A stretch of 64,000 nucleotides of DNA from an uncultured Clostridium sp. (lineage in GTDB: Bacteria > Bacillota > Clostridia > TANB77 > CAG-508), in contig CABUKD010000001.1 in the NCBI GenBank assembly GCA_902492105.1, positions 6,987 to 70,986 of the forward strand, written 5' to 3'. Made by a program: the position numbers and the translations under genes. This document shows positions 5,988 through 48,292 of the stretch, one piece after another (position 1 is the first letter of the stretch; every line of letters starts with the position of its first letter). The notes beneath the pieces were generated by a model that saw only the letters and a list, made by a program, of their open reading frames with translations, did not search any database and was not told where the DNA came from.

Positions 5988-7570
5988 CTTTCTTCTCCCT
6001 TCTCACTTTTTTCTGAAGCGACGGAACTTCTAGATAAATCCACATCTTGTTTTTCTTGCTCTTCTAATTCCCATGGTCTAAATCCATTTGCTCTTTCCAA
6101 ATCTTCTTTATAACATTCAAATTGTTTTGTAAATTCTTCTTGTGGTAGTTCTATAAATTGTCCGGCTGTTTTATCTGCAAAGTAGAATTTTTTTCCTAAT
6201 TCATTTGAATTAAGATAAACATATAAAACTGGTCTTTTTTTCTCATCTTGTTTATGGTACACTCTATGAATAACACATTTGTTAAAGTTGAAGTTCTTAT
6301 CATTTAATAGGATATCTTTTAAAACACGCATAGTAGAATTTGGGCATGTAACAAATTCTGGACAAACTTGAGAAAGTAGTAAAAATTGCTTTTGAATATC
6401 TGTTTCTGGTTCATTTGCATAAAGTTCGTGTAGCATCTTTGATTTTTCTATTAAATCTTTAATAGGAAATTGCCCATCTTTATCTGCTAGCCCAACACTT
6501 GTAAATAATGCTCTTAAATTTTGTTCATTTAAGCTTAAAGTTATATTGCTTAATTGAGAATCATTTTTGTGACTATTGCTATCTTTTCCGTCTTCATCTA
6601 TATCTAATTTTCTTGCTTGTTCATAACTAATACAAAAATTATCTGGTATAGCATCAAATCTATGGCTTGTTAAATTCCATGTTGGGTCTATTATGGTATC
6701 ACCTTTTTGTAATTCTCCATTTTCATCTGGAAGTTCTATATCTTTCACTTTTAGAAATGCATGATTTTCACTTTGCACAATTTCACTTTCAATACCTATT
6801 CTTTGCAAAATATATTGTTCTACTGCTGCTATTCCATTACAAACACCATAACCAGAAGTAATAATTTTCCATAATGCCCTAGCATCTTTTGGGTTAAACA
6901 CTTCTGTCTCATAATCTGGAGTATAGCTTATTTTTTTACCAATAGCATGGTCAATAATCGCCATTTTTTGTAATTTAGAATAGCTAGGATCTAAGCTATT
7001 AACAAGGGAGCTTATCCATTGTTCTGCTTTTTTATATTCATTTGGAGTAGAAAAAAATTGTATCGCGTAAGCTATTTCATTGCTTACTTCCATATTAGGG
7101 CAAATATCACATAATTGTAAAAAATTTTTTCTTTGTTCTTCATCAAATCTTTCTGGATTAACTCTCATTATGGCATCTAGTCCACGATAATCTTCCAAAT
7201 TTCTTTCTAAGTTTAAAATAACACGCCCAGTATATACTGATGTTGGAATACTAAGTGCTGTTTTATATTCTTCTGGGAAATTAGTAGTATCAATTTCTCG
7301 CTTTACCTCTTCTTTCAACGTTGCCAAGATTTCCATTTTCTCATTTAGTGTTAAATTAAAATGTTCTAAATTTGCTACAAATTCTTTTTGTTGCTCAACA
7401 TTAAATTCACGTACAATTTCATATGGACGAATATCTATTGTACTACAAAATTGTTTACACTCTTGTAAAAATTGGTGTAAAGTTTCTATATCTAATAATG
7501 ATAGTATGTCTAATTTCTCATATTTTGTATGAGCTTTTTCTAATCTTTTTCTTAAAATTTGAATATCCAT
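5984..7570 (-). CDS. Transglutaminase-like superfamily protein (putative cysteine protease fold).
   Basis: 528 aa. Core GYGVCNGIA ... HAFLKV ... D(TIID) consistent with the Cys-His-Asp triad of transglutaminase-like domains. Confidence 0.5.
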   Translation of the reverse strand: MDIQILRKRLEKAHTKYEKLDILSLLDIETLHQFLQECKQFCSTIDIRPYEIVREFNVEQQKEFVANLEHFNLTLNEKMEILATLKEEVKREIDTTNFPEEYKTALSIPTSVYTGRVILNLERNLEDYRGLDAIMRVNPERFDEEQRKNFLQLCDICPNMEVSNEIAYAIQFFSTPNEYKKAEQWISSLVNSLDPSYSKLQKMAIIDHAIGKKISYTPDYETEVFNPKDARALWKIITSGYGVCNGIAAVEQYILQRIGIESEIVQSENHAFLKVKDIELPDENGELQKGDTIIDPTWNLTSHRFDAIPDNFCISYEQARKLDIDEDGKDSNSHKNDSQLSNITLSLNEQNLRALFTSVGLADKDGQFPIKDLIEKSKMLHELYANEPETDIQKQFLLLSQVCPEFVTCPNSTMRVLKDILLNDKNFNFNKCVIHRVYHKQDEKKRPVLYVYLNSNELGKKFYFADKTAGQFIELPQEEFTKQFECYKEDLERANGFRPWELEEQEKQDVDLSRSSVASEKSEKGEER

Positions 7571-7885: not shown

Positions 7886-8947
7886 TTAATTCAAATAAGC
7901 AGGAGTTCCATAGGAAAAAGATTCATTAAATAAATAATTTAGTACAAAGTTTGGGAATCTCCTTTTTACACATTCAATATATATCTTTATTATACTTACA
8001 ATTGCATCATTATTACCATTTAAAATTAAATTCCAATTATCTTGATGGTATCTTACTTGCTCACTTAATATGAAAAAGTTAATATAATCTATTAATATCT
8101 GTGGTAATAAGATATTTTTTTTCTTGTTATTATTATAAATGTCTACAGGAAAAACAAAATATCTTCCCCCTATAACAGTATTATAGTTATAGAAAAATTC
8201 AAAGTTAGAAAGAGGCAAGTTATCGTTTGAAATATATTGTGTAAATGTTGAACTGCCATGCATTGGTTGTTTTGTATATTTAGTGTTTATTTTGGGATTT
8301 TTTTTCTCTAATTTATTAGAGTCTGTTGTATAAATTCCAAATGCGATTTTTTCATTTTCTATTTTTAATTCGCTATAACAATAAATACAATTAGAATCAA
8401 ATATTTTTATTTTATCTATTAAATTTTTTAATTCCGGCACAGTAGAAATAGTATCTTTAAATTTTATAGTATCCTTTTTATCAAATGTTATATTAAAAGT
8501 TTTTGCAAGTTCTAAAAAAACACCATCATTAACATTTGCATATTCATTTAATAAATTCCAATTGTTTTTTTTGTTTTTTTGTATTTTCTGTTTTTCATTT
8601 ATTGGTCTGGTTGTAAGTCCATGATATTTTATATCATCTAAAAACAACTCTCTTGATGAATTTGAAATTATTATGGCTTTTGAAAATGAAAGCATACCGT
8701 AATAAATAAGCAACGGAGATATGGATATATCCGCTTTTTCTGAATTCTTAAAAAATTCAATTCCTTGTTTAATGCAAAAAGATATTTCTTTTGCTTTTTT
8801 TCTTTCAATAGATGAAATTTTTGAACTCATTATTTTTCTGTTTGATTTTATTTTTCCACATAATAATTTTTCACAATTTTTAGAATATGACAACATTTCT
8901 AAATGCTGAAAAATATCTTTTTTTGGATTTTCTGACCATGTATGCAT
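7886..8947 (-). CDS. Uncharacterised protein (orfB). It has a PLLIYYGMLSFSKAII motif reminiscent of YaaC-like proteins. Last gene of the Type III R-M operon.
   Basis: 353 aa, soluble, no recognisable catalytic motif. It follows orfA after a 13-nt gap and is terminated by the hairpin at 7773..7797. Confidence 0.5.
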   Translation of the reverse strand: MHTWSENPKKDIFQHLEMLSYSKNCEKLLCGKIKSNRKIMSSKISSIERKKAKEISFCIKQGIEFFKNSEKADISISPLLIYYGMLSFSKAIIISNSSRELFLDDIKYHGLTTRPINEKQKIQKNKKNNWNLLNEYANVNDGVFLELAKTFNITFDKKDTIKFKDTISTVPELKNLIDKIKIFDSNCIYCYSELKIENEKIAFGIYTTDSNKLEKKNPKINTKYTKQPMHGSSTFTQYISNDNLPLSNFEFFYNYNTVIGGRYFVFPVDIYNNNKKKNILLPQILIDYINFFILSEQVRYHQDNWNLILNGNNDAIVSIIKIYIECVKRRFPNFVLNYLFNESFSYGTPAYLN

Positions 8948-8960
8948 TTTTAACCTCCTT

Positions 8961-9815
8961 TTATCTGTAGATTGCTATTGGGGTTACAACAAAAGCTGGT
9001 CCTTTAATAGAGTCTTTTAATTCTTTTGGATTAGATAAATCTTTAGGCATTTTTCTTTTTTGTTCTCTATTTAAATTTAATTTTTTTACATTATCAAATA
9101 TTTCATCTAATTCAATGCTTTTTCCTTTTTCTACTTTTTTTTGTACTTTACAAAGAAGATAGCATTGTGATTTAATATTTTCTTCATCAGTTTTAAAAAA
9201 AGTAGTATTTAATTCTGCAATAAAAGGATATTTTTTATTTTCAAAATTAAATACACAAGATACCATTGAAGTATCATTTATTCTTGAAATTGTTTCAAAT
9301 CCAGATAGTGCTTCTTTTGTTTTACTATCAATCATATCATCACTCATATAAGGTTGAAATGCAGTAATTAAATTGTTTAAGTTTTTTGCCATATTAGATA
9401 TTTCTTTTATTTTTGAAAATCTAGGTGTTACTAATAATTCTAAAAAATCGTCTCTATAAATATCTTGCCATATATTTTCATCAATTTCTTCATAATATTT
9501 TAATTCATCTTCATTTTTTAGATATTTTATTACTTTATCTAATTTACTAGAATCAGTTATTCTAACATTTTTTGTAGTAGTATTAGTATTTTGCTTTCCT
9601 AAATTTGCTTCTGCTGTTAATTTTCCAAATCCTATACCAGCTTTTCCTCCTTTATCATCTACGTTATTACTAGTAATTATTTCTTCATCGTAAGTATATC
9701 CGTCTATTTGAGATATATAATCATTTATTGCCTCAATATCTAAGTATAAGATATTTCTCAATGCCATATTATCAAAACCTTTCTTATCTAAAATATTTTT
9801 TTCAATAAAATCCAA
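8961..9815 (-). CDS. Uncharacterised protein (orfA), translationally coupled to res.
   Basis: 284 aa. Its start overlaps the res stop by 28 nt. No known motif recognised. Confidence 0.5.
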   Translation of the reverse strand: MDFIEKNILDKKGFDNMALRNILYLDIEAINDYISQIDGYTYDEEIITSNNVDDKGGKAGIGFGKLTAEANLGKQNTNTTTKNVRITDSSKLDKVIKYLKNEDELKYYEEIDENIWQDIYRDDFLELLVTPRFSKIKEISNMAKNLNNLITAFQPYMSDDMIDSKTKEALSGFETISRINDTSMVSCVFNFENKKYPFIAELNTTFFKTDEENIKSQCYLLCKVQKKVEKGKSIELDEIFDNVKKLNLNREQKRKMPKDLSNPKELKDSIKGPAFVVTPIAIYR

Positions 9816-11986
9816 TTATCATTTTCCATATCTTCTGTATATTCTGTATTACATAAATATAATGAATCATTCTTATCGTAATCTCTAACAAATCCCCAAT
9901 TTACATTATACTTTTTAGCATATTCTTTTAATGCTTCAAACTTATTTTCTACTTTTATATCAATATTTTTTGATTCACCTTCAGCATTTTCTCCGCCTTT
10001 TGTTTCAATAATCCAAATTTTATTATCTTTATCGCAAACTATGAAATCAGGGTAGAAGTGCCACTTATGATTTACTGCATCTACATAAACTATGGAAAAA
10101 TAGTCACTAGATTTTTCTCCATTTTTATAAAACCACTTAATACTTTCGTTATTTTCACAAAAATATTCAAACATTCTTTCAGATTTTGATTTTATTGTGC
10201 TATTAGGATAATTTAAATATATTGATTTTTCATAAATAGTAGTATCTCTCATTTTAGGATCATATTTGATATAATCCATTTCTGGAAAATGCCAATCAAT
10301 CTCTTTTAATTCTTCAAATTTCATTTTTATTTGTCTTGCTTTTTGAGATACTGCTTCTTGAAAATCATGTTTTAATATATCTTCATTATTTATCACAAAA
10401 GCATAAAACTCAGTTAAAGTTAAATCTACAAATTTTTTAGTAAATAATTTTTGTTTCCAAAACATTCTTTCTAGCATTAATCTAGTTCTATCATAACGCA
10501 TACCAATTTTAGATGCTATTTCATTTATAGAATGTCTTAATTCAAAACCATTTTTATTTGTAGTTACAGTAGATTGTACTTTAATTCTATTAGCATTTTC
10601 TAGTTCATTGCTATTAATCCTAACAATTTTATCTTGAACTATGTAATTATCAATAGTATCTTTAAAAACATATCCATTAGCTTCTAAAATTGTTTTATTA
10701 TCTTTCTTTTTAGAAGTTAGTTTATATTTATCTATGTAAAATTTATGTAATATATTGAAAGTTTCTCTTTCATCAAATCCATCAAAATTATTATCAAAAG
10801 TTAATTTCTTTAAAGTAAAGTTTTTATATTCATTTTTTAAAAATATAACTTTTGTATCATAAGCGTTATTACCTAATTCTTGTTTAACAGATTGTTCATA
10901 TTTTTCATCAAAAGTATATAAATAACAATTATCAAGTAAAACATTATCATAGTGATGTCCTTGTGGCATTCTTCTAATTCTACCAATAGTTTGAGTTTCA
11001 AAATCTTCATTCATATTATCACGAAGTTTTACAAGTATTTTAGCACGTGGACAATCCCAACCAGTAGATATTGCTTGTTTCATAATAAGTATTGCTTGAT
11101 TTGATTCATTATCTTCAATATTATCTATATTTTCTTTTCTATCAGCAAGCCATATAGCAAGATTTTGTTTTATATAGTCATATCCTTTTTCTTCAAGAAT
11201 TTTTTCTATCATTTTTATCAAATCATCAGATTTGCTTGGTACTTGAATAATAATTAAAGGATTTACCTGAACACCTAATTTTAAATATTCATTTTTAATT
11301 GCTTTTCTTTTTTCTATTGCAAGGTCAAGCAAATATTCATGTTCATTGGAAAGAGCAGTATCATTTGATACATTTTCATTAATATAAAGTGCTCTTGTAA
11401 TTAAACCAGAATTTATAACTTCTAATTCATCGATAGCAATAAATTCTGCTTCTTTATTTGTTTTAGTAGTAGCACTAACTCTAATAATATAATTAGGATT
11501 CATATATTCAATAATACTTTCAGCTTTAACAGTTTTATTTAAATGTTCTTCATCAACGATTACAATAAATTTGTATCCTGAGTTATGTGCTTCATGTATT
11601 CTTTCATATAGATTTTTTCTTTCAGCATCTTTTAAAGCATTGTTGCCTTTTTTAGTAATCGTTTCCCAGTTAATAAATGCAGTAGATTTTTCTTCAAAAC
11701 CTTGAAGTAATACATCTTGAATATTTTGTGTTTTATGATGAGGTAAAAACTTTAACATTTTCTTTCTACTTTGTTCTTCTAAATCTCCTTTACCAGGAGT
11801 AAGCCATACAAATAAAACATTTTTATTTTCTTTAAAATATTCTTCAATATATGAAAGTAATATAATTGTTTTACCAGATCCAGTAGGTGCTTGTACTAAT
11901 ATTTCTTTTTTAGTACCAATACTTGTAGCATCTAATAATTTATTTACTGTATCAAGTTGAAATTTTTTTAATTTAATTCCTTGCAT
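9788..11986 (-). CDS. res: Type III restriction enzyme Res subunit (SF2 helicase plus C-terminal PD-(D/E)xK nuclease).
   Basis: Walker A VQAPTGSGKT, DEEH box (IVIVDEEH), and a C-terminal FYPDFIV...IIETKG PD-ExK-like motif. Lies immediately downstream of mod. At 732 aa it is shorter than many Res proteins. Confidence 0.8.
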   Translation of the reverse strand: MQGIKLKKFQLDTVNKLLDATSIGTKKEILVQAPTGSGKTIILLSYIEEYFKENKNVLFVWLTPGKGDLEEQSRKKMLKFLPHHKTQNIQDVLLQGFEEKSTAFINWETITKKGNNALKDAERKNLYERIHEAHNSGYKFIVIVDEEHLNKTVKAESIIEYMNPNYIIRVSATTKTNKEAEFIAIDELEVINSGLITRALYINENVSNDTALSNEHEYLLDLAIEKRKAIKNEYLKLGVQVNPLIIIQVPSKSDDLIKMIEKILEEKGYDYIKQNLAIWLADRKENIDNIEDNESNQAILIMKQAISTGWDCPRAKILVKLRDNMNEDFETQTIGRIRRMPQGHHYDNVLLDNCYLYTFDEKYEQSVKQELGNNAYDTKVIFLKNEYKNFTLKKLTFDNNFDGFDERETFNILHKFYIDKYKLTSKKKDNKTILEANGYVFKDTIDNYIVQDKIVRINSNELENANRIKVQSTVTTNKNGFELRHSINEIASKIGMRYDRTRLMLERMFWKQKLFTKKFVDLTLTEFYAFVINNEDILKHDFQEAVSQKARQIKMKFEELKEIDWHFPEMDYIKYDPKMRDTTIYEKSIYLNYPNSTIKSKSERMFEYFCENNESIKWFYKNGEKSSDYFSIVYVDAVNHKWHFYPDFIVCDKDNKIWIIETKGGENAEGESKNIDIKVENKFEALKEYAKKYNVNWGFVRDYDKNDSLYLCNTEYTEDMENDNWILLKKIF

Positions 11987-13741
11987 TTACATTACCTCCA
12001 TAATTTCATCTTCAAAATAATATTCTGGTATGATATATACTTCAATATTATTATTTTTAAATATAGATTCTTGCGTTGATGTTAAGAGTATATCTGAAGA
12101 TATATATACTTTTTCGCAGACATCTAATTCACTTTGATTTTTACTAAATTTATCTAATTCATCTTCGTCTAAATAAACTCTAATTTTATTGTCATCTATT
12201 TCAATACCGTTTTCTAATTGAATAAGATTTTTAATATTAATTAGTAAATTATTGTGAAGATTTTCATCTTCAGTATTAATTCTTGGTATATATGTGCATT
12301 TATAATATTTTAAATTTGCTTCTAATGGATTATATTTTCCATAACCTTCAATCACGTTTTTTATTCTCTTGTAAGTTATATTTTCACAAATTTGATTTTC
12401 ATTATTAGTACATAGAATAAAATGCCTTTGTCCGTTATCCTCGCTATTTAGTTCTAATACTGCTTGAGCAGTACTACCAGAACCTGCAAAAAAATCTAAA
12501 ATAGTAGCGTCTTTTTTTGTATGATAATTTATAAGTTCTTTCAGCATCTTGGCTGGCTTTTTTCCACTATTAAAAGGTATATTTCCTTCGTGGCGAATAT
12601 TACCAAAATCAGCTGCAAAATTCATTAAATTAGAAATAGGTACTTCCCTAAAAGAGCCATGTTGAGAGTTTATTTCTTCAACTCTAGATAATGGCATTCC
12701 AGAGTACATTTTGCACCTAGTAGAGCCTTTTTTTGCAGGTCCAACATAATATCTGTATCCTAATCCATCATCACCACGACCAATCACTTTATATAAGCAT
12801 CCTAGACCATCTATATTATATCTTGGTTCTATATATTTTCTAACGACTTGACCATATGACATTTTAGAATAAATTGTTCCTGAAACCCAAGTTTCTTTAA
12901 GTAAGTTAATATTTGATTGTTCTTTTTTTTCTATTATCCATTCGTTAGGCTTAAACACTTTAATTTCAGTATTATCTTTATGTTTAATGGTAGTTCCACT
13001 CGAAATTTCTTTAATTTCATAAATAAAACTAGCATCAGTATATTCTTCTTTTGGTAAATTTATTTTAAACTGACTGTAATCTTTAGCGTAGACTAATACA
13101 TATTCCATTACTGGTTTAACTGATTTTCCATCAGCTAAAGACTTTTCTGCATATCTAACTTGAATATGATGAATGGATATCCTATTAGTTTCATTAAAAA
13201 TATCATCACAAAGTAGTTTTAACTGTGCTATTTCATTATCATCTATCGAAATAAAAATTATACCTTTATCATTAAGTAATTCTTTTGCTATTCTTAGTCT
13301 TTTTTCCATAAAAGATAACCATTTAGAATGTTTGTATCCATCTTCATTATCAATAATTTTATCATTATAAATAAAATCATCGCTACCTGTATTATATGGA
13401 GGATCAATATAGATTACATCGATTAATCCTTTATGAGTTTTTTCTAATAGATATAAACTATGAAGATTATCTCCCTCTAATAAAAAATTAAACTTATCTT
13501 TTGGATTAGATACTATTTCTTTATCTTTTACTTCTTCAAAAGTAGGTATCTGAGTTTCTAACTCTTTATCAACTCTTTCTTCGTGTTCTTCCCATATAAG
13601 TCCATATTTCTTTTTAGTCAATTCATTTTCTATCATTGATAAATTAGTTAATGTTTCTTCATCAGTAATATTTTTTTTAATTTCGTTAATTGTATTTAAC
13701 ATTTTATTTCTTCTAATTTTTGATAGATTAGTAGTTTCCAT
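11987..13741 (-). CDS. mod: Type III R-M Mod subunit (beta-class N6-adenine/N4-cytosine DNA methyltransferase).
   Basis: IYIDPPYNTG (motif IV, DPPY) lies N-terminal to FFAGSGSTAQAV (motif I). That beta-class order is typical of Mod. Its stop abuts the res start. Confidence 0.85.
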   Translation of the reverse strand: METTNLSKIRRNKMLNTINEIKKNITDEETLTNLSMIENELTKKKYGLIWEEHEERVDKELETQIPTFEEVKDKEIVSNPKDKFNFLLEGDNLHSLYLLEKTHKGLIDVIYIDPPYNTGSDDFIYNDKIIDNEDGYKHSKWLSFMEKRLRIAKELLNDKGIIFISIDDNEIAQLKLLCDDIFNETNRISIHHIQVRYAEKSLADGKSVKPVMEYVLVYAKDYSQFKINLPKEEYTDASFIYEIKEISSGTTIKHKDNTEIKVFKPNEWIIEKKEQSNINLLKETWVSGTIYSKMSYGQVVRKYIEPRYNIDGLGCLYKVIGRGDDGLGYRYYVGPAKKGSTRCKMYSGMPLSRVEEINSQHGSFREVPISNLMNFAADFGNIRHEGNIPFNSGKKPAKMLKELINYHTKKDATILDFFAGSGSTAQAVLELNSEDNGQRHFILCTNNENQICENITYKRIKNVIEGYGKYNPLEANLKYYKCTYIPRINTEDENLHNNLLINIKNLIQLENGIEIDDNKIRVYLDEDELDKFSKNQSELDVCEKVYISSDILLTSTQESIFKNNNIEVYIIPEYYFEDEIMEVM

Positions 13742-13897
13742 TATTACAACTCCTTACGTTAAAACCATTTAATTATCTTAATTTTGATGTGCGTTTTTTT
13801 CTGTTAATATTATACTATATATTGCTTATATTTTCCATACTTCGACTAAAATTGCTAAAGAAAAAATCGGATATTTCTATCCAATTTTTTAAAAATA

Positions 13898-14224
13898 TTA
13901 TTCGATGTTTAAATTGAATTTTATATCGTCACATATATCATTCAACCAAGTTAAATAATGATTTAAATCATGTTCTTTAATATAACCATATCTATGTGCA
14001 TCCCTAGCAATAGTATTAAGTCCATTTCCAATCATTTTGAATTCATCACGATGTTTTTCTAGTATACTCATATCAGCTTTGATAGGAGTATATTCTTTAA
14101 TCAATTTTCTAATATAATCTGACTTACTTAAATTCAATTTTTTACATTTTTCTTCTAAAATTTTATTTTCTTCTTCAGATAAATACAATGTTTTTTCAAT
14201 CTTTCTTTTTCTCATCTTTTCCAC
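13898..14224 (-). CDS. MobC-family mobilisation (relaxosome accessory) protein with ribbon-helix-helix region.
   Basis: 108 aa. LSKSDYIRKLI RHH-like segment and the conserved GNGLNTIARDAH motif (MobC GNNLNQIAR consensus). Confidence 0.6.
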   Translation of the reverse strand: MEKMRKRKIEKTLYLSEEENKILEEKCKKLNLSKSDYIRKLIKEYTPIKADMSILEKHRDEFKMIGNGLNTIARDAHRYGYIKEHDLNHYLTWLNDICDDIKFNLNIE

Positions 14225-14331
14225 CTCCTTTCTTATGTAAGGGGATTGGGGATTTCCCCATATACGAATTTGTGCGAGTGTACAAATTCAGTGCTGGCTA
14301 GACAAAAAATTATATCTAGTACATACACTTT

Positions 14332-14691
14332 TTAAATAAATATTAATTCTTTTAAGATTATTTCTTCAGCCATATTTTTGTAATTGTTCATAAGTTTTGA
14401 CCATTCTATATGATTAATTTCTTTATTTTTTTCAGATAGTTTTTCATCTGAATTTTTGTAATTTTTCATTAATATTTGTAATCTATCTTCACTATTTTTA
14501 CTAACTGAAATAAGATGATTAGTAAGTTCATTAGTCATTAAAAGTGTAGTGTAAAGAGCTTTCTTATTTTCCTTTAAATAGTGTAATCTTAAATATCCAT
14601 ATTTGTTTATTCCTTTAGTATTTTGATTTTTTATAGTTAAATTTGGTAATAAATAATTTCCATTTCGTGTATAAATTAATTTCATTTTCAT
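14332..14691 (-). CDS. tnpV: TnpV-like protein (Tn4451/Tn4453 family transposon accessory protein).
   Basis: 119 aa. The MKxKxxYTxxGxYxLPNLT ... YGxxRLxYLKE ... LMNNxK ... EEIIL pattern matches Clostridial TnpV as remembered. It sits directly downstream of the large serine recombinase, as in Tn4451. Confidence 0.55.
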   Translation of the reverse strand: MKMKLIYTRNGNYLLPNLTIKNQNTKGINKYGYLRLHYLKENKKALYTTLLMTNELTNHLISVSKNSEDRLQILMKNYKNSDEKLSEKNKEINHIEWSKLMNNYKNMAEEIILKELIFI

Positions 14692-14707
14692 CTCTCCATT
14701 TCTTTAT

Positions 14708-16498
14708 TTAATTAGTGACTGCAATATCTTTTTTAGGTACTAATATTAAAATATCTTTTAGTTTGTTTTCTTCAACATAAGGACAGCTAATAATGCCATC
14801 AATATATAAATGTTCTCTTGATTTTGATATAAAATATTCTAAAAATTCATTTGAATATTTATTTGATTTCATTTTTTTAATAGATAAAATATCATAATCT
14901 ACTTCTATATTTTTTAATTTTTCTTTGTTAATTTCTTTATAAAATTTGATACCAATATTGTTGTTTTCCATAATTTTATTAAGATATTTTATATATTCTT
15001 TACTGCTTTTTGTTATTAGTTCATCTGTAAATTTTATATTTTTAACATCAATGTTATAGTTTTTATCTCTTGTTATTTCTATTTGAGATATAAGTCTATG
15101 AATTAAATCTCTTTTAGCTTTTCTTGTTAGTAAATCATAAAGAAAAGTAAATCCTATATTTTTAATATTTGTAAAAATTAATTTGTCGTTTTCTTCAATA
15201 CAGTCTAATTTTTTAACAAGTTCTATTGTATATTCTTTTGAAGAATTATCTGGATCAAGAGTTGTTTTCTTTTTATTTAATTTATCTATTTCTTTCTTTA
15301 TTACTTCATTTTTGTGATTAATTGTTTCTACATTCAAAGTAGAGCTTAAATATAAATCAACTAATCTTTTTTCCTGCATTTTTAATTTTTCAATAGCTTT
15401 TTCTATTTCTTTTACATCATTACTTTTAGTAGAATTACAAGTAATAATTTCATTATTCATAGAAAGCATAAATATTGTTAACTCTTCTAATATTTGTTTT
15501 AATTTTTCTTCTATCTTTTCTGTATTATAATGATATCCATAACCTTTACAATTAGTGTTTTTACATCTTAAGTGGTAATATACTTTTTGCTTTCCATTAG
15601 GATATTTAAATGATTCTGATGAACTCATAATTTCTCCACATAAAGGGCATTTAACTAATCCTGAAAATAAATGAATGTGCTCACCATAATTAGAATGTTT
15701 ATTTTTAACTAATACATTTCTAGTTGCATTCCAAGTATTTATATCAATAATTGGTTCACAATAATTTTCGACTCTTAAAATATCTTGAGGTTTTCTTTTA
15801 TACTTTCCATATTCAAATATTCCAATATAAATTGAATTAGTAAGTATTTTATAAACTCTATCTGATAACCATTTTCCTTGTTTTAAGTAAGCGTTATTAT
15901 CGTGCATAATAGTTGCTATATTTCTTGTGGAGTGTCCTTTTTTGCATAGTTCAAATATTTCTTTTACTACTTGTGATTCAATAGGTTCTATTTCTAAATG
16001 ACCAGTATTTTTATTTCTAACATAGCCATAAGGTGCTTTACTAGGGTGTATTTTTTCTAAAGCCATTTCTTCCATAGCTCTTTTTGTTCTTGCTCCAATT
16101 TCTTTTCTTTCTCGTTGACCAAATACTAAGTTCATTCCAAATATCATTTCACCATTAGCAGTAGATACATCATAAGGTTCTAATATTAATTCTATTTTAA
16201 CATAGTGTTCTTCACAGTAATTTAAAAGCCAAAATCCATCATAATTATTTCTTGTAAGTCTATCTACTTTAATAGCAATTAATTTGTCAATCTTTTTAGA
16301 TTTTATATCAGCAAGTAATCTTTGCATTTCTGGTCTCATTAAATCTTTTCCAGAATGTCCTGCATCATTGTAAACATCAACGATACTATAATCATTCTTT
16401 TCACAATACTCTTTAATCATTCTAAGTTGTGAATCAATAGAATAACCATTATCTCTTTGATCATCTGTACTAACTCTTACATAAACACCACATCTCAT
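14708..16498 (-). CDS. tnpX: Large serine recombinase (TnpX-like). Probable true start MRCGVYVRVSTDDQ at 16496-16498, with AGGAGG RBS at 16505-16510. The ORF track extends to 16558.
   Basis: N-terminal resolvase catalytic domain (YVRVSTDDQ, DRLTRN) plus long recombinase/zinc-ribbon C-terminal extension. About 597 aa. Confidence 0.85.
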   Translation of the reverse strand: MRCGVYVRVSTDDQRDNGYSIDSQLRMIKEYCEKNDYSIVDVYNDAGHSGKDLMRPEMQRLLADIKSKKIDKLIAIKVDRLTRNNYDGFWLLNYCEEHYVKIELILEPYDVSTANGEMIFGMNLVFGQRERKEIGARTKRAMEEMALEKIHPSKAPYGYVRNKNTGHLEIEPIESQVVKEIFELCKKGHSTRNIATIMHDNNAYLKQGKWLSDRVYKILTNSIYIGIFEYGKYKRKPQDILRVENYCEPIIDINTWNATRNVLVKNKHSNYGEHIHLFSGLVKCPLCGEIMSSSESFKYPNGKQKVYYHLRCKNTNCKGYGYHYNTEKIEEKLKQILEELTIFMLSMNNEIITCNSTKSNDVKEIEKAIEKLKMQEKRLVDLYLSSTLNVETINHKNEVIKKEIDKLNKKKTTLDPDNSSKEYTIELVKKLDCIEENDKLIFTNIKNIGFTFLYDLLTRKAKRDLIHRLISQIEITRDKNYNIDVKNIKFTDELITKSSKEYIKYLNKIMENNNIGIKFYKEINKEKLKNIEVDYDILSIKKMKSNKYSNEFLEYFISKSREHLYIDGIISCPYVEENKLKDILILVPKKDIAVTN

Positions 16499-16532
16499 AA
16501 AATTCCTCCTTTCTTCATTTTTGAGAAGGATT

Positions 16533-16687
16533 AATATTCCTCTCACTTGTTTCCTCACTTAAGTTTAAAATAGCAACCTAGATTTTTAAAAAAATTAATC
16601 TTCTCATATGTTTCCTAACTAAAACTCAAAAAAGCAGACTGAATTTGAAAAAAATTAATCCTCTCATATGTTTCCTCGCTAAAAGGC
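16533..16687. repeat. Three ~32-bp direct repeats, consensus ATTAAT(C)YTCTCAYWTGTTTCCTMRCTWAA, in the recombinase 5' UTR/promoter region.
   Basis: Copies at about 16533-16562, 16594-16625 and 16656-16687, spaced ~60 bp apart. The first copy sits just upstream of the RBS. Confidence 0.6.
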
Positions 16688-16717
16688 ACTTTTACGAAGT
16701 GTATTTTCAAAAAAAAT

Positions 16718-17002
16718 TTAATATTTGTATTTTTTTATAATATTTTCTATTTCTTTTAAGTTATATTTTGCTTTATGTTCTTTAATGTAAAATGGTTTAT
16801 TACTGATTTCATTTACTTTGTACTCAAGAATAGTAAGAGTAATAGGATGCGTAATTAGATATTCAGTTGGTTCTATAATTTGTAAATTAGTATGTAGAAG
16901 AACTTTGATTTTTCCTTTTTTAGTTTTGTAAGTGTAGTTTTTAATAAGTTCTATTATTTTTGGATTAGGTTTAAGTTCTTCTAAGATTTTAAATTCAAGC
17001 AT
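16718..17002 (-). CDS. Hypothetical protein, 94 aa.
   Basis: ORF only. No motif recognised. Confidence 0.35.
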   Translation of the reverse strand: MLEFKILEELKPNPKIIELIKNYTYKTKKGKIKVLLHTNLQIIEPTEYLITHPITLTILEYKVNEISNKPFYIKEHKAKYNLKEIENIIKKYKY

Positions 17003-17093: not shown

Positions 17094-17167
<74 letters not shown>

Positions 17168-17311: not shown

Positions 17312-18122
17312 ATGAAATTTCTTATTGATTATTGTAAAGGGATTTTAATTGGTAGTGGTGCAATTTTGCCAGGTATTAGTAGTGGTGTTTTTTGTGTTAT
17401 TCTTGGTATTTATGAAAAATTAATTGATAGTGTTCTAAACTTATTTCATGACTTTAAGAAAAATGTTATTTTTCTTCTTCCTATTGGTCTTGGTGGAATT
17501 ACAGGAGTGTTATTAGTAGGTAAATTGCTTAATTTTCTCTTTAATGAATACCCTATGCCAACTAAGTTTTGCTTTATCGGTCTTATTTTAGGTAGTATTC
17601 CTGTATTATTCAAGCAAGCAAATCAGAAAAACGGTTTTCGACTTTCCCATCTCATTTTTCTAGTAATTGCTTTTTTTATTGGTTTTCTTTCTGTTAAATT
17701 AGAGACTATATTGCCAAATCTCATTAACTTAGATTTAGGAGAAAACAACTTTTTCTATTTTATACTTTCTGGATTTCTTATGGCCATTGGTATTGTAGTT
17801 CCTGGCGTAAGTAGTAGTGTTATTTTAATGTGTTTACGGTGTTTATAACCTTTATTTAGGTGCTATTGCTAGCGTAAATTTATCTATACTAATTCCTATG
17901 GCAATTGGAGTTTTACTTGGAAGTCTCTTATTTTTAAAAATAATTCAATTTTTGTTAAACCATTATTATACACAAACTTTTTATGCCATTATTGGATTTG
18001 TATTAGGCTCTGTTCTTATTTTATATCCTGGCTTTAACTTTAGTTTAGAAGGTTTTATCTCTATTGGATTATTTATTTTAGGTTTTTATATTGGTTTAAA
18101 GTTTGAAAAAGTCAGCCAGTAG
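17312..18122 (+). CDS. DUF368-family membrane protein, split by a frameshift near 17828-17848.
   Basis: Duplicated ILPGISSGV / VVPGVSSSVIL half-repeats typical of DUF368. The ORF stops at 17848 but continues in the +1 frame (GVYNLYLGAIASVNL...) into the 17898 ORF. Confidence 0.7.
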
Positions 18123-18240
18123 GGACGGTCCTTTTTGACTGAAAATCGACCAACAGGGACACTCTTTTCTCTTTTTTAAATAAGTTAAAAAAGAACTGTC
18201 CCAAGTGGCCCCATTAGGGGCTACTCGGAACCGTCCCCAA
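18119..18240. repeat. GC-rich palindromic repeat element (~120 bp) with terminal inverted repeats AGGGACGGTCC / GGAACCGTCCC and nested inner IR. Its left ~55 nt are a homologue of the element at 47019-47080.
   Basis: The termini are inverted copies of each other. The TAG stop of the DUF368 gene lies inside the CAGTAGGGACGG end. Its base composition stands out from the AT-rich background. Confidence 0.65.
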
Positions 18241-18241
18241 C

Positions 18242-19633
18242 TTACTTGCCTCTTCTCAAAATCCAACCTTTTTCTGCTTGAATTGGTAGAGGCATAAGCA
18301 CTGTTTGTCCAGCTTTTCCTGGGTTTACTGTTGATATTTCTTCTCTTGTTTCTGTGTCCCATAGTTTTTCAATTTGGAAAGGAACTGTTTCTATTTGGTT
18401 TGGTATTAATATTTCCATTTTGTCACCAACAGTTAATTTATTTCTAATTTCTACTAAACAAATTTGATTCTTATTACTAAATACTATTCCTTCTTTTACA
18501 TTGTTTTCTGTGTTTTTACTATTTTCTTTGTTTTCACTATTTTCGTTATTTTCTTCTTTTTTTTCTTGTTTTGTTATATTTTCTTGTTTTGTTATATTTT
18601 CTTTTTTTATCATGATTTCATCTTTTTTTATATTGTTTACTAATACTTTTCCCCCAAATTCATAATTTGGATTATATTGTTTTCCTTCATATTCTTGAGA
18701 GTCTTTGTTGTTTCTATCATTAAAATAAAAAGTGGTTAGCCCTCTTGTTTTTGTTTTTTCTAACTCTTTTAAATATTTTGTTGCATCATAATTTTTTGTG
18801 TCTTTCATATAATCATCAATAGCATTGCGATAAGCATTTACAACAGATGCTAAATAATATTCTGTTTTTAGTCTTCCTTCTATTTTTAAACTATCGATTC
18901 CCATTTCTATAATTTCTGGAATTTCTTTTATTAAACATAAATCTTTAGATGAAAAAATATAGGTACCTTTTTCGTCATATTCTACTGGCATTAAATTGCC
19001 TGGATTATTATGTTCTTCTACATAAACATTATATGCCCATCTACAACTTTGCGCACAATCTCCTAAGTTGGCACTTCTTCCTGCCAAAAAGTCACTTAAA
19101 AAACATCTTCCAGAATAGCCAAAACAAATGGCACCATGAACAAATATTTCTACTTCTAAGTCTTTTTCTTTGTTGTTCATAATTTCTCTTATTTGTTCCT
19201 TATTTAATTCTCTTCCTAGAATAACCCTAGATGCTCCATTTTTATGCCAAAAGTTAGCTGTATGGTAACTTACAATATTTGCTTGTGTACTAACATGAAT
19301 ACCCACATCTGGTGCATATTGTTTTAAAATTTCCATTACTCCACCATCAGAGGCAATAATGGCATCTACTTTTAAGTCATTTAACATTTTGGCTTGTTTT
19401 TTTATTTCTTCATAATAGCTATCCCAAGCATAAATATTAATAGCGGCATACACTTTTTTTCCAATGCTATGGGCATATTCAATTGTTTTTGCTAGTTCGT
19501 CATTATCTACTTCTGCTCTACTTCTTAAAGATAATGTTCCTGTTCCGCAATAAACAGCATCTGCTCCATATAGAAATGCTGTTTTTGCTTTTTCAAAGGA
19601 TCCTGCTGGTGCTAATAATTCTGGTTTTTTCAT
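18242..19633 (-). CDS. Peptidase U32 family protein (TrhP/YrrO-like) with low-complexity insertion.
   Basis: N-terminal MKKPELLAPAGS...AVYCG U32 signature and conserved cysteines. Internal ENITKQENITKQ and N/E/K-rich insert encoded by tandem DNA repeats at ~18500-18610. Confidence 0.8.
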   Translation of the reverse strand: MKKPELLAPAGSFEKAKTAFLYGADAVYCGTGTLSLRSRAEVDNDELAKTIEYAHSIGKKVYAAINIYAWDSYYEEIKKQAKMLNDLKVDAIIASDGGVMEILKQYAPDVGIHVSTQANIVSYHTANFWHKNGASRVILGRELNKEQIREIMNNKEKDLEVEIFVHGAICFGYSGRCFLSDFLAGRSANLGDCAQSCRWAYNVYVEEHNNPGNLMPVEYDEKGTYIFSSKDLCLIKEIPEIIEMGIDSLKIEGRLKTEYYLASVVNAYRNAIDDYMKDTKNYDATKYLKELEKTKTRGLTTFYFNDRNNKDSQEYEGKQYNPNYEFGGKVLVNNIKKDEIMIKKENITKQENITKQEKKEENNENSENKENSKNTENNVKEGIVFSNKNQICLVEIRNKLTVGDKMEILIPNQIETVPFQIEKLWDTETREEISTVNPGKAGQTVLMPLPIQAEKGWILRRGK

Positions 19634-21887: not shown

Positions 21888-21989
21888 GTGTCAATGGGGA
21901 CGGAGAATTTTGACAACTTTTAAAAAAAATATTTATTTTTGTTAAATCTTAATTCAAAAGTTGTCAAAATTCTCCGTCCCCATTGACAC
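21888..21989. repeat. Perfect 34-bp inverted repeat (GTGTCAATGGGGACGGAGAATTTTGACAACTTTT ... reverse complement) with 34-nt AT-rich spacer.
   Basis: Arms at 21888-21921 and 21956-21989. It sits in the divergent intergenic region between the GT4 gene and a membrane-protein gene. It contains the same GGGACGG core as the other repeat loci, plus TTGACA boxes. Confidence 0.8.
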
Positions 21990-27639: not shown

Positions 27640-28104
27640 TCAAGAATTTTCTTCGACTTTCATCTCCAAAGATGTAATACGTAAAGAATGATATTCTGTT
27701 ACTTCTTCTAATTTTTTAATTCTTCCTTCATCTCTGTCAAATCTGTCATCTTGCCAACTTGTTTTGTCAAATAGAGCCGGAATTCTGTTAGTAACAGCAT
27801 CTTCAATGATAATAAGGTATTTTTCTATGCTATCAATTCTGTTTTCATGATTTTCAATAATTTCTCTATTTTTCGCTATTTCTTTTCTATTTTCTTCTAT
27901 TGCTTTTTTGTTTTCTTCAATCGCTTTTCTATTCTTTGCTATCTCTTTTCTGTTTTCCTCAATTGCTTCTCTATTCTTTGCTATTTCTAGGGTGTTTTGA
28001 GCAATTAGTTCCGCATTTCTATCTACCTTTTCTGAAAGTCTTCCTAGCATTACTGCATTTTGCGTGACGATTTCTAGAATTTTTTCTTCCATCTCTTCTT
28101 TCAC
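27640..28104 (-). CDS. Coiled-coil repeat protein.
   Basis: Tandem 11-residue units (AIEENRKEIAKNR x about 4), encoded by ~33-bp DNA tandem repeats at ~27850-28010. Confidence 0.5.
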   Translation of the reverse strand: MKEEMEEKILEIVTQNAVMLGRLSEKVDRNAELIAQNTLEIAKNREAIEENRKEIAKNRKAIEENKKAIEENRKEIAKNREIIENHENRIDSIEKYLIIIEDAVTNRIPALFDKTSWQDDRFDRDEGRIKKLEEVTEYHSLRITSLEMKVEENS

Positions 28105-41628: not shown

Positions 41629-42307
41629 TTATCTTTTTTCTAAAATAATTTCTTTTACCTTTTCCTTAACTTGTCCAATACTTATATGTGTAGTGTCTAT
41701 TACTATTGCATCTCCAGCTATTTTTAAGGCTCCTACTGGTTTATGCATGTCATTATAATCTCTTTTTTTCATATCTTCTAAAGTTTCTTCATAGGTTGCT
41801 ACAATTCCCTTTTCTTGGTTTTCTAAAAATCTTCTTTTTGCTCTTTCTTCTACATCTGCATCTAAGTAGATTTTGACATCTGCATTTGGAAATACTACTG
41901 TGGTAATATCTCTTCCTTCCATAATAACATCCTGATTTTCTGCCATTTTTCTTTGCAAGTCTACCATAATTTCACGTACTTCTCCGGATAGAAGATACAG
42001 GAGATACAAAATTACTTACTTCTTTGGTTCTTATTTGCTTACTTACATCTTCTCCATTTAAATATACTGTAATTTCTCCATTTATATTTTGCATTTGAAT
42101 ATTAATATTTTTGGCAATTTCTATAATTTTTTCTTTTTCTTCTGTAGATTCAATAGAATTAATTCCTTTTCTTAAACATTCTAATGCTACACATCGATAC
42201 ATTGCTCCTGTGTCTATATTAAGTAGATTTAATTCCTGTGCTATTAATTTTGTAATGGTTCCTTTTCCGGTTCCTGCTGGTCCATCTATTGCTACAATAA
42301 ACGACAT
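41629..42307 (-). CDS. cmk: Cytidylate kinase, split by a frameshift at ~41972-42009.
   Basis: N-terminal IVAIDGPAGTGKGT P-loop in ORF 41972..42307. The C-terminal half (EVREIMVDLQRKMA...) is in ORF 41629..42009. The combined length is ~225 aa. Confidence 0.8.
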
Positions 42308-46731: not shown

Positions 46732-47018
46732 GTAAAAAATTCTCCTCTTTTTATTTTTTATTTTTTGTATTTTATATGTTTTTTCATTTATTTATATATT
46801 TTTATATTTTATACTTTCATATTTTCTGCATGTTTTTTATTCTTTTGCATTATATCATTATTATATTCTATTGTCTAGATTCTTTTAGGATGAAAATAAT
46901 TGGATAGATGCATTTTTGAATAGAAAATGGTTGAAATATGTATTTCATAAAAATAACACTCCTTTGCAAATACGTTTTATAAAGAGGATGAAATCTCTTA
47001 TAAACGTTTCTGTAAAGG

Positions 47019-47080
47019 AGTGTCCCTGTTGGCTGATTTTCAACCAATAAGTACCGTCCCTATTGGCTGATTTCACGAAT
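47019..47080. repeat. Second copy of the GC-rich repeat unit, about 85 percent identical over ~55 nt to the reverse complement of 18119-18170. It overlaps the stop codon of the GT2 gene.
   Basis: Two direct half-units GTCCCTGTTGGCTGATTTTCAAC and GTCCCTATTGGCTGATTTCAC. The TAG stop is embedded in CAATAGGGACGG, as at the 18 kb locus. Confidence 0.65.
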
Positions 47081-48292
47081 AGCAATTTTTCTAACATGCT
47101 CGATTTTATCCCAACTAGTATCACGTTTAAATAAACATTTAAAGTTAATTGCAAGCCATGAGCCTAAGAATAAAGGATAACATAATAGTCCTTTTATCAT
47201 TGGTTTAATTGGTCTTTTATCTAACAACATAATTAAAACTGCTGTTCCTATTGGTAAGAGGAATGTTGGTATTACATATCTCAAAATATTTAAAGTTAAC
47301 TCTGCACTTGTCATTCCTTGTCCTGCATACATAACAAAATTTAAAAATAGTAATACTAATGTTGCCACAAACATTGGAATACTTCCAATAATGTACAAGA
47401 ATCCATCAAAATTCATCATAGTTTTGTGTTCTTTAATTGCTAAGGCTAATGGTTTTGTGTATTCTTTGATACATTGTATATGACCAACTGTCCATCTTGT
47501 TCTTTGTTTCCAACTTTGTTTAAATCCTAATGGTTGTTCATCATAAACAATCGCATCTGCTGCCCAACCTAATTTTTTTCCTTTTATAATTCTTTTTAAA
47601 GAAAATTCAATATCTTCTGTTAATGTTTTTGTATTCCAACCTTCTGGTTTAATTACATCAAATTTTACCATGAATCCAGTACCATTAATAAGTGGTGATA
47701 ATCCTACATTGTATCTAGCTAAATGGTAGAAACGGTTCATAGTCCAATAGAAAATAGTATATCCTGCTGTAATCCAGTTATCTGTTGGATTTTTGATATC
47801 TCTATATCCTTGTACTACATCTTCCCCTTGGCAAAGTTTTTTATTCATGTTTTTAATAAAATCTTCATGTACAATATTATCTGCATCAAAAATGCAAAAT
47901 GCATCATAAGGTGCATCTTCTTCAATTTTTTGTGCTAAAAACCAGTTTAAAGCATAACCTTTTGTTTTCTTTTCTGGGTCAAATCTTTCATACACAATAG
48001 CACCTGCATTTCTTGCTACTTCTGCAGTACGGTCTGTACAATTATCTGCAATAACATAAATATCTAGTAATTCCTTTGGATAGTTTTGCTTTTTTAAACT
48101 TTCTATTAATTCTGTTACAACATTTTCTTCGTTATGTGCTGGAATAATTGCCATAAAACGATGATTTTTTTCTACTAATAATGGCTTATCTTTTAGTTTT
48201 ACTAATGAACAAATACTAATTGCTAATTGGTATAACCAAAATATAGTAATAATCCACACTAAAGCTTGTTGTAGAATGTATAGATATTCCAT
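47060..48292 (-). CDS. Processive GT2 membrane glycosyltransferase (cellulose-synthase / poly-beta-hexosamine / glycolipid synthase-like).
   Basis: N-terminal TM, DxD region (FDADN), QRTRWTVG (QxxRW) motif, and C-terminal TM bundle. Confidence 0.8.
   Translation of the reverse strand: MEYLYILQQALVWIITIFWLYQLAISICSLVKLKDKPLLVEKNHRFMAIIPAHNEENVVTELIESLKKQNYPKELLDIYVIADNCTDRTAEVARNAGAIVYERFDPEKKTKGYALNWFLAQKIEEDAPYDAFCIFDADNIVHEDFIKNMNKKLCQGEDVVQGYRDIKNPTDNWITAGYTIFYWTMNRFYHLARYNVGLSPLINGTGFMVKFDVIKPEGWNTKTLTEDIEFSLKRIIKGKKLGWAADAIVYDEQPLGFKQSWKQRTRWTVGHIQCIKEYTKPLALAIKEHKTMMNFDGFLYIIGSIPMFVATLVLLFLNFVMYAGQGMTSAELTLNILRYVIPTFLLPIGTAVLIMLLDKRPIKPMIKGLLCYPLFLGSWLAINFKCLFKRDTSWDKIEHVRKIAIREISQ

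Follow-up and report, generated by a model that had tools for sequence, protein, structure and literature searches.

A palindromic element between convergent DUF368 and U32 peptidase genes of an uncultured Clostridium sp. is probably a REPIN-like doublet of a widespread repeat family tied to RayT

Element A is a nested palindrome at positions 18113-18241 of a 64,000-nucleotide stretch of DNA from an uncultured Clostridium sp. (contig CABUKD010000001.1 of assembly GCA_902492105.1; the whole 64-kb stretch is called the window below), where it occupies the entire gap between the stop codons of two convergent genes, one encoding a DUF368 protein and the other a U32 peptidase. Our analysis indicates that element A is probably a REPIN-like doublet of hairpin units resembling repetitive extragenic palindromes (REPs), one member of a widespread, non-autonomous repeat family tied to RayT, a REP-associated tyrosine transposase. 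Because the same repeats flank a RayT gene in other genomes, we conclude that element A is selfish, non-coding mobile DNA that also supplies the last codons and the stop codon of the DUF368 gene.

Structure of element A

The original prediction for this locus had described a GC-rich palindrome with terminal inverted repeats and nested inner repeats, and both were present in the sequence as described. Within a window of about 28% GC, which matched a contig from a human-gut metagenome, the left end of the element (AGGGACGGTCC, 18121-18131) recurs at the right end (GGAACCGTCCC, 18227-18237) as an inverted copy that differs only by one additional T. The outer pair is formed by GGGACGGTCC with GGAACCGTCCC, the inner pair by GGGACA (18156-18161) with TGTCCC (18197-18202), and a small inner hairpin, GCCCCATTAGGGGC, lies at 18209-18222. 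Read from 18108 to 18244, the first half runs AAAGTCAGCCAG, TAG, GGACGGTCC, TTTTTGACTG, AAAATCGACCAACA, GGGACAC and TC up to an A/T hairpin, and the second half continues with AACT, GTCCC, AAGTG, GCCCCATTAGGGGC, TACTC, GGAACCGTCCC, CAAC and TTA. The limits first proposed for the palindrome, 18119-18240, needed adjustment: its start lies about 10 nt earlier (18108-18113), since the stem arm CAGCCAGTA belongs to the element, and it extends up to the U32 stop codon.

The left part of element A is a REP-like unit on the plus strand (18113-18141), composed of the stem arm CAGCCAGTA, the core GGGACGGTCC (18122-18131) and the return arm TTTTGACTG. The TAG at 18120-18122 lies inside this unit and is the stop codon of the distal DUF368 open reading frame (ORF; 17898-18122, ending ...EKVSQ). 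The element had been said to supply the stop of the DUF368 gene, which is correct for this TAG with the qualification that it closes only a 74-codon distal ORF, there being a frameshift upstream. A second, partial unit follows on the plus strand (18146-18165, TCGACCAACA plus GGGACAC) and was recognized by aligning the arm with other copies of the family (copy B and loci L012 and L009, introduced below); it is a direct repeat of the stem arm and GGGAC that lacks a return arm, and its GGGACA is the one that pairs with TGTCCC at 18197-18202. An A+T-rich central hairpin and loop (18163-18196, CTCTTTTTTAA...TTAAAAAAGA) appeared in the minimum-free-energy folds of both strands. The right arm (18196-18241, minus strand), delimited from the sequence and the arm alignment, reads GTTGGGGACGGTTCC, a GCCCCTAATGGGGC hairpin and CTTGGGACAG in the minus-strand direction, and the same arm is found in the related loci L017 and L018. 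Lacking a local stem, this arm pairs with the left unit through its core (GGGACGGTTC; complement at 18228-18237), also written as GGGGACGGTTCC, and it went undetected by the covariance model described below. In each arm, two direct GGGAC motifs are spaced 34-35 nt apart. The right arm ends 1 nt before the U32 stop codon, a TAA on the minus strand (18242-18244) that, in the ORF list, closes the peptidase gene (18242-19633) and directly adjoins the element. The C-terminus of the peptidase, GWILRR(G/K)K, is kept in homologues with and without element A.

RNA folding had been put forward as a check on the structure, and both strands of 18100-18250 folded well below their shuffles (z = -4.2 and -4.3). 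A terminator scan of the same interval found no Rho-independent terminator, and element A has no U-tract beside its GC stem.

Related copies in the window

An inverted similarity of about 85% to 47019-47075 had been reported previously, and our alignment recovered it as 18109-18168 against 47014-47073 (60 nt, 85% identity), the longest inverted repeat of the window. The region that thus matches the left arm of element A, copy B, contains a solo REP-like unit on the minus strand (47041-47069) made up of TCAGCCAATA, GGGACGGTAC, T and TATTGGTTGA. Inside it lies the TAG stop codon (47060-47062) of a GT2 glycosyltransferase gene whose protein ends ...REISQ; the earlier observation that TAG sits within CA(G/A)TAGGGACGG and that both C-termini end in SQ holds for ORF 17898-18122 and ORF 47060-48292. 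The rest of copy B (46957-47040, minus strand) comprises a partial unit, TCAGCCAACA plus GGGACAC, and a terminator-like distal hairpin, ACACTCCTTT...AAAGGAGTGT followed by TATTTTTAT, that carries a T-run.

Copy C, which the original prediction had not listed, is related to element A and lies between divergent genes. It is a near-perfect palindrome of 102 nt (21888-21989) in which two head-to-head units (GTGTCAATG, GGGACGGAGA, ATTTTGACAAC) form an inverted repeat with 37-nt arms that are 97% complementary. C-type elements were also found in L009 and in the IMG/VR contigs L172-L174. In all, the family is represented in the window by three loci and five units. The motif GGGACGG occurs six times against 0.31 expected, a count that none of 100 shuffles reached, and is the most enriched 7-mer of the window (18-fold); two of the six occurrences lie in copy C, and one, at 41528, is a chance coding match to a GxGxxG motif.

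To place these copies, we ran a covariance model (R1) built from 32 units, all from metagenome and viral loci, over the window with filters off. The best match was the solo unit of copy B (47041-47069; 23.9 bits, E = 7e-5), followed by both arms of copy C (ranks 2-3, E = 0.0075) and the left unit of element A (rank 4, 18113-18141; 16.5 bits, E = 0.02), and the next match, at rank 5, had E = 0.71. As the top four matches of a model made from foreign units are the copies in question, the window copies belong to the same family as those units.

Spread and architecture of the family

Foreign copies were collected with a doublet pattern, GGGACGGTTC-N20-50-GAACCGTCCC, that was run on IMG/VR and on metagenomes and that enforces an exact core and a head-to-head pair; the invariance of the core and the predominance of doublets reported here are therefore partly built into the search. 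In IMG/VR, the pattern returned 14 viral loci, of which several carry 3-10 copies over 6-13 kb (some contigs had 5-10 copies in 6-7 kb). The metagenomes gave at least 120 loci from termite gut, rumen, digesters and sediments, with hosts of 27-72% GC, and the viral and metagenome loci hold at least 148 distinct doublets. A scan of a genome collection with one narrow pattern gave 14 matches, about half of them chance-like, and so turned up few named taxa; it yielded L009, L012, L016, L003 and L006. In L016, Neobacillus rhizophilus, a stretch of 8 kb contains at least five copies, which have the core GGGACGGTTC and X = GATGCATG, where X stands for the stem arm ahead of the core and X' for its complement. 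The family was also present in metagenome-assembled genomes (MAGs) of Clostridia/Bacillota (L012, L009), and single copies were seen in one Chloroflexota and one Omnitrophota MAG.

The basic unit is a hairpin of 29-35 nt whose stem varies by lineage yet pairs and whose loop contains the conserved core. The core is GGGACGGTTC(T), with the variants GGGACGGTCC, GGGACGGTAC and GGGACGGAGA, and can be summarized as GGGACGG(T)(T/C)C; positions 1-7 are the steadiest, and positions 8-10 vary (TCC, TAC, AGA, TTT). In the preferred register of the conserved block, GGGACGGTTCT, 0-3 nt precede the core and one more follows it, mostly with T first. When arms from the window, L012, L009, L018 and L019 were aligned, they shared the layout X-(TA)-GGGACGGTCC-TTTT-X'-GAAAAT-X-(CA)-GGGACAC, with X being TCAGCCA(A/G) in the window and GGAACAG in L012. 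Doublets throughout the viral and metagenome loci follow the layout X-core-X'-loop-X-core'-X', in which X is specific to the genome and complementary to X'.

Pairing of the stem is a property of the family as a whole. Among the matches listed, with no pre-selection for pairing, at least 6 of 7 Watson-Crick pairs flanked the core in 215 of 402 distinct units, as compared with 27 of 402 after shuffling of the 3' flank. Lineages have unrelated stems that nevertheless pair, such as TCAGCCAATA/TATTGGTTGA, GGAACAG/TTGTTCC, GATGCATG/CATGCATC and GTGGAATGAG/CTCATTCCAC, and in L018 substitutions restore stem pairing (TCAGCCA/TGGCTGA). The seed alignment of R1 has changes on both sides at all nine stem pairs, which is illustrative only, the seeds having been pre-selected for pairing. 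A GTAG tag at the 5' foot of the hairpin does not characterize the family: the left unit of element A and L012 read GTAG-GGACGG, copy B reads ATAG, and in most units the core is preceded by G, TG, GG, AAG or the like. Units occur mostly as head-to-head inverted pairs, as in A and C, and single units with their own hairpin also exist (B, L016, L030). In one subfamily (e.g., L048, L086, L111), the two stem arms consist of runs of A and of T, which makes the dimer resemble a bidirectional intrinsic terminator.

Some loci have more complex arrangements. In L023 (1783-1907, equivalent to L022 9012-9090), a 39-nt unit is repeated three times head-to-tail ahead of a doublet, and extra short X-GGGGAC(G) repeats flank many doublets (e.g., L074, L130, L145); these arrangements indicate that units can be amplified in tandem. 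The low-GC IMG/VR contig L174 carries two direct C-type doublets 656 nt apart (6560-6710 and 7260-7360), the first directly after the tRNA-3'-end-like sequence GGTTCGATTCTCGCTACCCGCTCCA, and this region may be the neighborhood of a prophage attachment site.

Rfam searches of the window and related loci, at gathering and at permissive thresholds, passed only tRNAs; weak matches to snoR97 and BTnc231 did not align with the core. BLAST of element A and of a Neobacillus copy against a plasmid database gave only short chance matches. A full-text literature search with the core sequence found only primers and short hairpin RNAs, and as subscription journals lay mostly outside this search, an earlier description is possible. 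The kind of system is already known (REP/REPIN-RAYT), and the family itself appears to be undescribed in Rfam and in the literature searched.

Position relative to genes and stop codons

Among the matches listed, tandem genes flank 51 doublets, convergent genes 22 and divergent genes 6. A further 34 (about 30%) are located within long ORFs; in high-GC DNA, some of these ORFs are certainly spurious. For the doublets listed, the median distance from the core is 26 nt to the upstream stop codon and 93 nt to the downstream start codon. The comparison with stop codons that had been proposed earlier therefore places copies just 3' of stops and finds them scarce between divergent genes.

At 4/4 independent gene-arm junctions of the low-GC subfamily, the upstream gene ends in frame at the TAG of X-TAG-GGACGG (TAGGGACGG), for which the chance is about 1% if each phase is equally likely. 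These junctions are the left unit of element A, copy B and both sides of L012, where a thiamine pyrophosphate-enzyme subunit ends ...LEQ* on the left and a 64-aa ORF with a CxxCxxCxxxCP ferredoxin motif ends ...VEEQ* on the right. As a property of the whole family this was rejected: the TAG of TAGGGACGG serves as a stop codon in only 7/42 cases and is confined to the low-GC subfamily.

Presence, absence and decay at orthologous loci

Loci orthologous to site A (L017-L021) were gathered via the U32 peptidase. Element A is identical in L017 (U32 97% identical) and kept in L018 (86%), where substitutions give better X/X' pairing (TCAGCCA/TGGCTGA). It is degenerate and rearranged in L019 and L020 (both 86%), with GGGACGG changed to AGGTCGT, and absent from L021 (79%). 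In L021, the gap instead holds an ordinary terminator-like hairpin with A/T flanks, AAAGCTGAAA...TTTCAGCTTT, and the DUF368 frame ends ...GLKFENLETN*, versus ...GLKFEKVSQ* in the window. The differences in hairpin and C-terminus indicate that element A replaced a terminator and the last DUF368 codons and was then inherited vertically and decayed. The original prediction had named comparison with element-free orthologs as a check and had allowed for chance similarity if no further copies were found and relatives shared the same 3' sequence; copies exist in the window, in relatives and in metagenomes, and L021 both lacks element A and has a different 3' sequence.

The other sites gave a similar picture. 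At site C, the palindrome is present in L017 and L018, and L019 has one degenerate arm; at site B, the MAG L009 has a C-type doublet in place of the distal ~85 nt of the window sequence. No target-site duplication was found at the A, B or C junctions, where the flanks are inverted stem arms and not direct repeats.

The DUF368/VCA0040-like gene next to element A (17312-18122) is itself interrupted. A 1-nt insertion at about 17840-17848 (TTACGGTG, where TTAGGTG is expected) splits it into ORFs of 178 and 74 aa, and five assemblies (L001, L017-L020) share the 178-aa gene call. The split reflects either a fixed pseudogene or programmed frameshifting and not a sequencing error. The L021 gene, at low coverage, has another 1-nt shift near its 3' end. 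In the neighboring U32 gene, a low-complexity insert at 18500-18700 (ENITKQENITKQEKKEENNENSENKENSKNTENN, with 18-nt tandem repeats) differs in length among relatives (proteins of 406-469 aa).

Linkage to RayT

All-against-all clustering of the 2465 ORFs of element-bearing loci (about 150 loci, ~1.1 Mb) revealed no linked family; the only recurrent groups were histidine kinases, ABC transporters and shared phage genes. By asking instead which ORFs in these loci have units on both sides, we found a 263-aa protein with a Y1_Tnp domain (PF01797, E = 1.7e-11) encoded at L141:4653-5444, with GGGACGGTTC doublets 10 nt past its stop codon and 78 nt ahead of its start codon. Its homologues number more than 4200 at E <= 1e-10, and several of them are labelled 'REP element-mobilizing transposase RayT' by JGI. 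The HUH motif (NHVHLL) and the Tyr of RYIHQNP were invariant among the homologues compared, which are about 263-280 aa long and have a C-terminal extension. Many homologues lie on contigs of ~0.9-2 kb, little longer than the gene, as would be expected if assemblies broke in flanking repeats.

In four independent loci, repeats of the family flank RayT. Searching from the protein back to the DNA led to L161 and L175 (RayT 60% and 57% identical, respectively), where, as in L141, the gene has doublets on both sides, in these two of the GGGACGGTTCC type, and in L175 the last 12 residues and the stop codon of RayT are read from the doublet. Adjacent units accompany further RayT genes. In L166 (38% identity), the unit GATGCATCAGAACCGTCCC lies directly after the gene. 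Two loci of 0.30 GC content have units near genes of 40% and 38% identity: L165 contains GGACAAG-GGGACAGGTTT-ATCGTCC units and a GGGACGG/CCTGTCCC hairpin, and L167 has tandem GAACAATG-TGGGACACATAAG units upstream. The RayT genes of both are flanked by GGGACAGG and GGGACAC units, and element A has the same cores, GGGACAG and GGGACAC, as its inner motifs.

In L158 and L169 (RayT 53% and 58% identical), the X-core-X' layout is kept with another core, GGGGTCAG(A/G)C, and a different core beside a distant RayT is as expected if enzyme and repeat co-evolve. These repeats constitute a sister REP family with the core GGGGTCAG(A/G)C(C), found at 2850-3000 and 3795-3870 of L158 and at 2900-3000 and 3798-3840 of L169; CACATTG-GGGTCAGACC-CCTTTGTGTCAT is an example of its unit.

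Other features of the window

An island of ~9 kb (7886-17002) is missing from the relatives L017-L020, in which DUF368 runs straight into a 528-aa gene. Its gene products are a large serine recombinase (14708-16558), TnpV, a NikA-like protein, an N6/N4 DNA methyltransferase, a ResIII/DEAD helicase, DUF6414 and YaaC. The island adjoins a tRNA-Gly gene (17094-17167) and is probably an integrated mobilisable element with a restriction or defence module. Just inside its recombinase end, two direct 44-nt repeats (16581-16684; 89% identical, 60 nt apart) may be recombinase-binding or att-related sites. Elsewhere, a 207-nt direct repeat (82% identical) occurs at 8-214 and 63731-63937, 63.7 kb apart, and a 21-nt repeat is present five times in tandem at 27857-27984, within the minus-strand ORF 27640-28104. 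The cytidylate kinase gene (41629-42307) consists of two adjoining ORFs, of 111 and 97-126 aa, that both match PF02224, and is apparently a second split gene.

Discussion

The closest known counterparts are the REPs and REPINs with their RAYT enzymes, known in E. coli, Pseudomonas and Stenotrophomonas (PMC3116915, PMC3337134, PMC3479197, PMC3733652). As in those systems, the repeats described here are short imperfect palindromes, with 5-10 copies per 6-8 kb in other genomes and three loci in the window, mostly extragenic head-to-head doublets able to form a long hairpin, that favor convergent or tandem gene ends and mostly have no linked transposase; also shared are a Y1/HUH gene bracketed by repeats and a repeat that changes together with the enzyme clade (PMC3116915, PMC3337134, PMC3733652). 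The hosts differ, in that they are Bacillota, Bacteroidota-like and other anaerobes; a broad REP survey reported GTAG and CGTC families in eight phyla, with Firmicutes and Bacteroidetes not among them (PMC3733652). In the RAYT classification, abundant flanking repeats are tied only to groups 2 and 3 (PMC5581495), and the present RayT, at about 263-280 aa with a C-terminal extension, falls below the REP_Tyr_transpos cutoff. Further likeness is found with the Rickettsia palindromic elements and CGTC REPs, which may overlap coding sequence and supply codons and mostly lack an adjacent transposase, and the core here includes CGTC (GAACCGTCCC). CGTC REPs, however, have stems of 8-9 bp, loops of 4-5 nt and an unpaired terminal tag, whereas here the loop is the conserved block and a RayT is linked (PMC3733652).

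Bidirectional intrinsic terminators are also placed between convergent genes, and L021 has such a hairpin in the same gap; element A differs from them in having no U-tract by its GC stem and in being a member of a sequence family, not locus-specific. The Correia, BOX and RUP elements of Neisseria and Streptococcus are small intergenic palindromes that alter transcript 3' ends and may overlap gene ends, as here. They have defined terminal inverted repeats with target duplications, or boxA/B/C modules, and we know of none with a GGGACGG core or a Y1 transposase partner.

Several of our observations weigh against a REPIN-like doublet tied to RayT. The best NCBIfam match of the L141 protein, to the REP-associated tyrosine transposase model (REP_Tyr_transpos), scores 59 bits against a cutoff of 80. 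No RayT gene was found in the 64-kb window nor, save for L141, in 1.09 Mb of other element loci, a scarcity that fits a single-copy enzyme acting in trans. The RayT loci with the exact GGGACGGTTC core (L141, L161, L175) look Bacteroidota-like, judging from neighboring genes and one source label, and the low-GC RayT loci L165 and L167 have GGGACAG/GGGACAC cores, with GGGACGG just once. Classical REPs carry GTAG at the 5' foot, whereas here a core of 10-11 nt (GGGACGGTTCT) lies between the stem arms, and a conserved block within the hairpin loop is a geometry undescribed for RAYT-REP recognition. Finally, the ortholog comparisons show ~85-130 nt replaced rather than a clean insertion, and as element A persisted and decayed in place across relatives with ~86% identical U32, recent mobility in this lineage is unsupported.

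Taking these points into account, we propose the following model for a RayT-mobilised doublet. Two head-to-head units, together with the partial GGGACA(C/G) units, would make up the nested palindrome of element A. A single-copy RayT, a Y1 HUH tyrosine transposase, may recognise the units as hairpins when the DNA is single-stranded, as it is at the replication fork; this part of the model draws on REP-RAYT pairs (PMC3479197), on HUH/Y1 transposases, among them those of IS200/IS605, and on the RayT linkage in other genomes. Its tyrosine would cut beside the hairpin and rejoin the doublet at new sites in trans, without target duplication, with the core as the sequence-specific determinant and the variable stem as the structural one. 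A RayT of this kind in the Clostridium genome could have mobilised the window copies. At the present locus, element A would have replaced an ancestral bidirectional terminator with A/T flanks and the last DUF368 codons, and now gives VSQ plus TAG. Its role there is probably a passive one, providing a hairpin for the 3' ends of both convergent transcripts, and the stop codon in its stem could slow translation termination.

An effect on transcripts could also be its primary function. Element A would then be a cis-acting structured RNA of the 3' untranslated region, acting as a terminator, a block to 3' exonucleases or a stop-proximal structure that modulates termination or trans-translation, with the GGGACGGUUC loop bound by a conserved RNA-binding factor and the repeats secondary. 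This explanation, which we consider unlikely, accounts well for copies that come right after stop codons, for the in-frame TAG at all four low-GC junctions, for the very stable fold of both strands, for the A-run/T-run stems of one subfamily and for the replacement of an ordinary terminator hairpin at a site from which the canonical terminator is gone. In addition, E. coli REPs within ~15 nt of a stop codon reportedly lower translation via ribosome stalling, an effect attributed to work by Liang, Rudd and Deutscher from 2015. It fits less well with the lack of an Rfam match, the position of copy C between divergent genes, the ~30% of dimers within long ORFs and the stem mismatches, in which G-T is not in significant excess over A-C (79 versus 58, p = 0.087), and it leaves a transposase gene bracketed by the same repeats unexplained. 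An RNA role is compatible with a REPIN-like doublet as a secondary, co-opted role.

The original prediction had favored either such an RNA element or a REP/MITE-like family, MITE denoting a miniature inverted-repeat transposable element. The REP-like part has gained from the further copies, the absence from L021, the post-stop position and the RayT flanking; the MITE part has not, given the lack of target duplication and a replacement in place of an insertion. A classical MITE would be a deletion derivative of a DDE-type insertion sequence with the terminal repeats GGGACGGTxC...GxACCGTCCC, moved by cut-and-paste with target-site duplication. Its small size, intergenic site, terminal inverted repeats and paired GGGAC motifs, which resemble multiple transposase-binding sites in their 34-35 nt spacing, are what one would look for, but the flanks at A, B and C are inverted and not direct, solo units with their own hairpin exist, and no recurrent transposase lies near the ~150 loci, the sole linked enzyme being of the Y1/HUH type, so that a MITE is highly improbable. 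We likewise give hardly any credence to immobile sites for a conserved host DNA-binding factor, uptake-signal-like or nucleoid-organising, arranged as inverted pairs in terminators. The DNA uptake sequences of Neisseria and Haemophilus are similarly arranged as inverted pairs downstream of genes, and a core of 10-11 nt that is invariant across very different hosts would suit such a factor. A protein that binds duplex DNA would nonetheless leave the lineage-specific pairing flanks unexplained, RayT relatives have another core in the same architecture, and presence varies at orthologous sites.

Other identities were tried and rejected. ARAGORN gave only the neighboring tRNA-Gly and no tRNA- or tmRNA-like fold in the element. 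A guanidine-II (mini-ykkC) motif, suggested by the likeness of GGG-ACGG-UCC to an ACGR loop, is ruled out by the 3' position, the inverted pairing, the misfit of the C-type core and the lack of an Rfam match. Integron attC sites have the core-site consensus RYYYAAC ... GTTRRRY; the ends CAGTAGGGAC and GTCCCCAAC (GTTGGGG on the other strand) do not fit this R''/R' consensus, nor is there a cassette array or an integrase in the vicinity. An extracytoplasmic function (ECF) or sigma-70 promoter or a LexA box, suggested by the stem arms GGAAC and TTGACA, is not compatible with stems that vary freely between lineages.

More broadly, and tentatively, these copies may form a REPIN-RayT system undescribed in the sources searched. 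Such a system would span several phyla (Bacillota, Bacteroidota-like hosts, possibly Chloroflexota and Omnitrophota) and rely on recognition of a loop core instead of GTAG, with the copies of low-GC Clostridia co-opted as stop-embedding 3' hairpins that replace terminators and could tune termination. A single selfish palindromic copy is biologically ordinary, and the family behind it is moderately interesting. For annotation, the finding means that a repeat supplies the last codons and the stop codon of several genes and can stand in for the usual terminator. R1 would give a signature for annotating thousands of unexplained intergenic palindromes, and the family would account for contig breaks around RayT genes in metagenome assemblies. 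The hairpin with its 10-nt core is a simple substrate for studying how this RayT clade recognises DNA. REP/REPIN-RAYT systems have been studied almost wholly in Proteobacteria, and a family that occurs in gut and other anaerobes and keeps its loop core invariant would extend them to major phyla of the microbiome.

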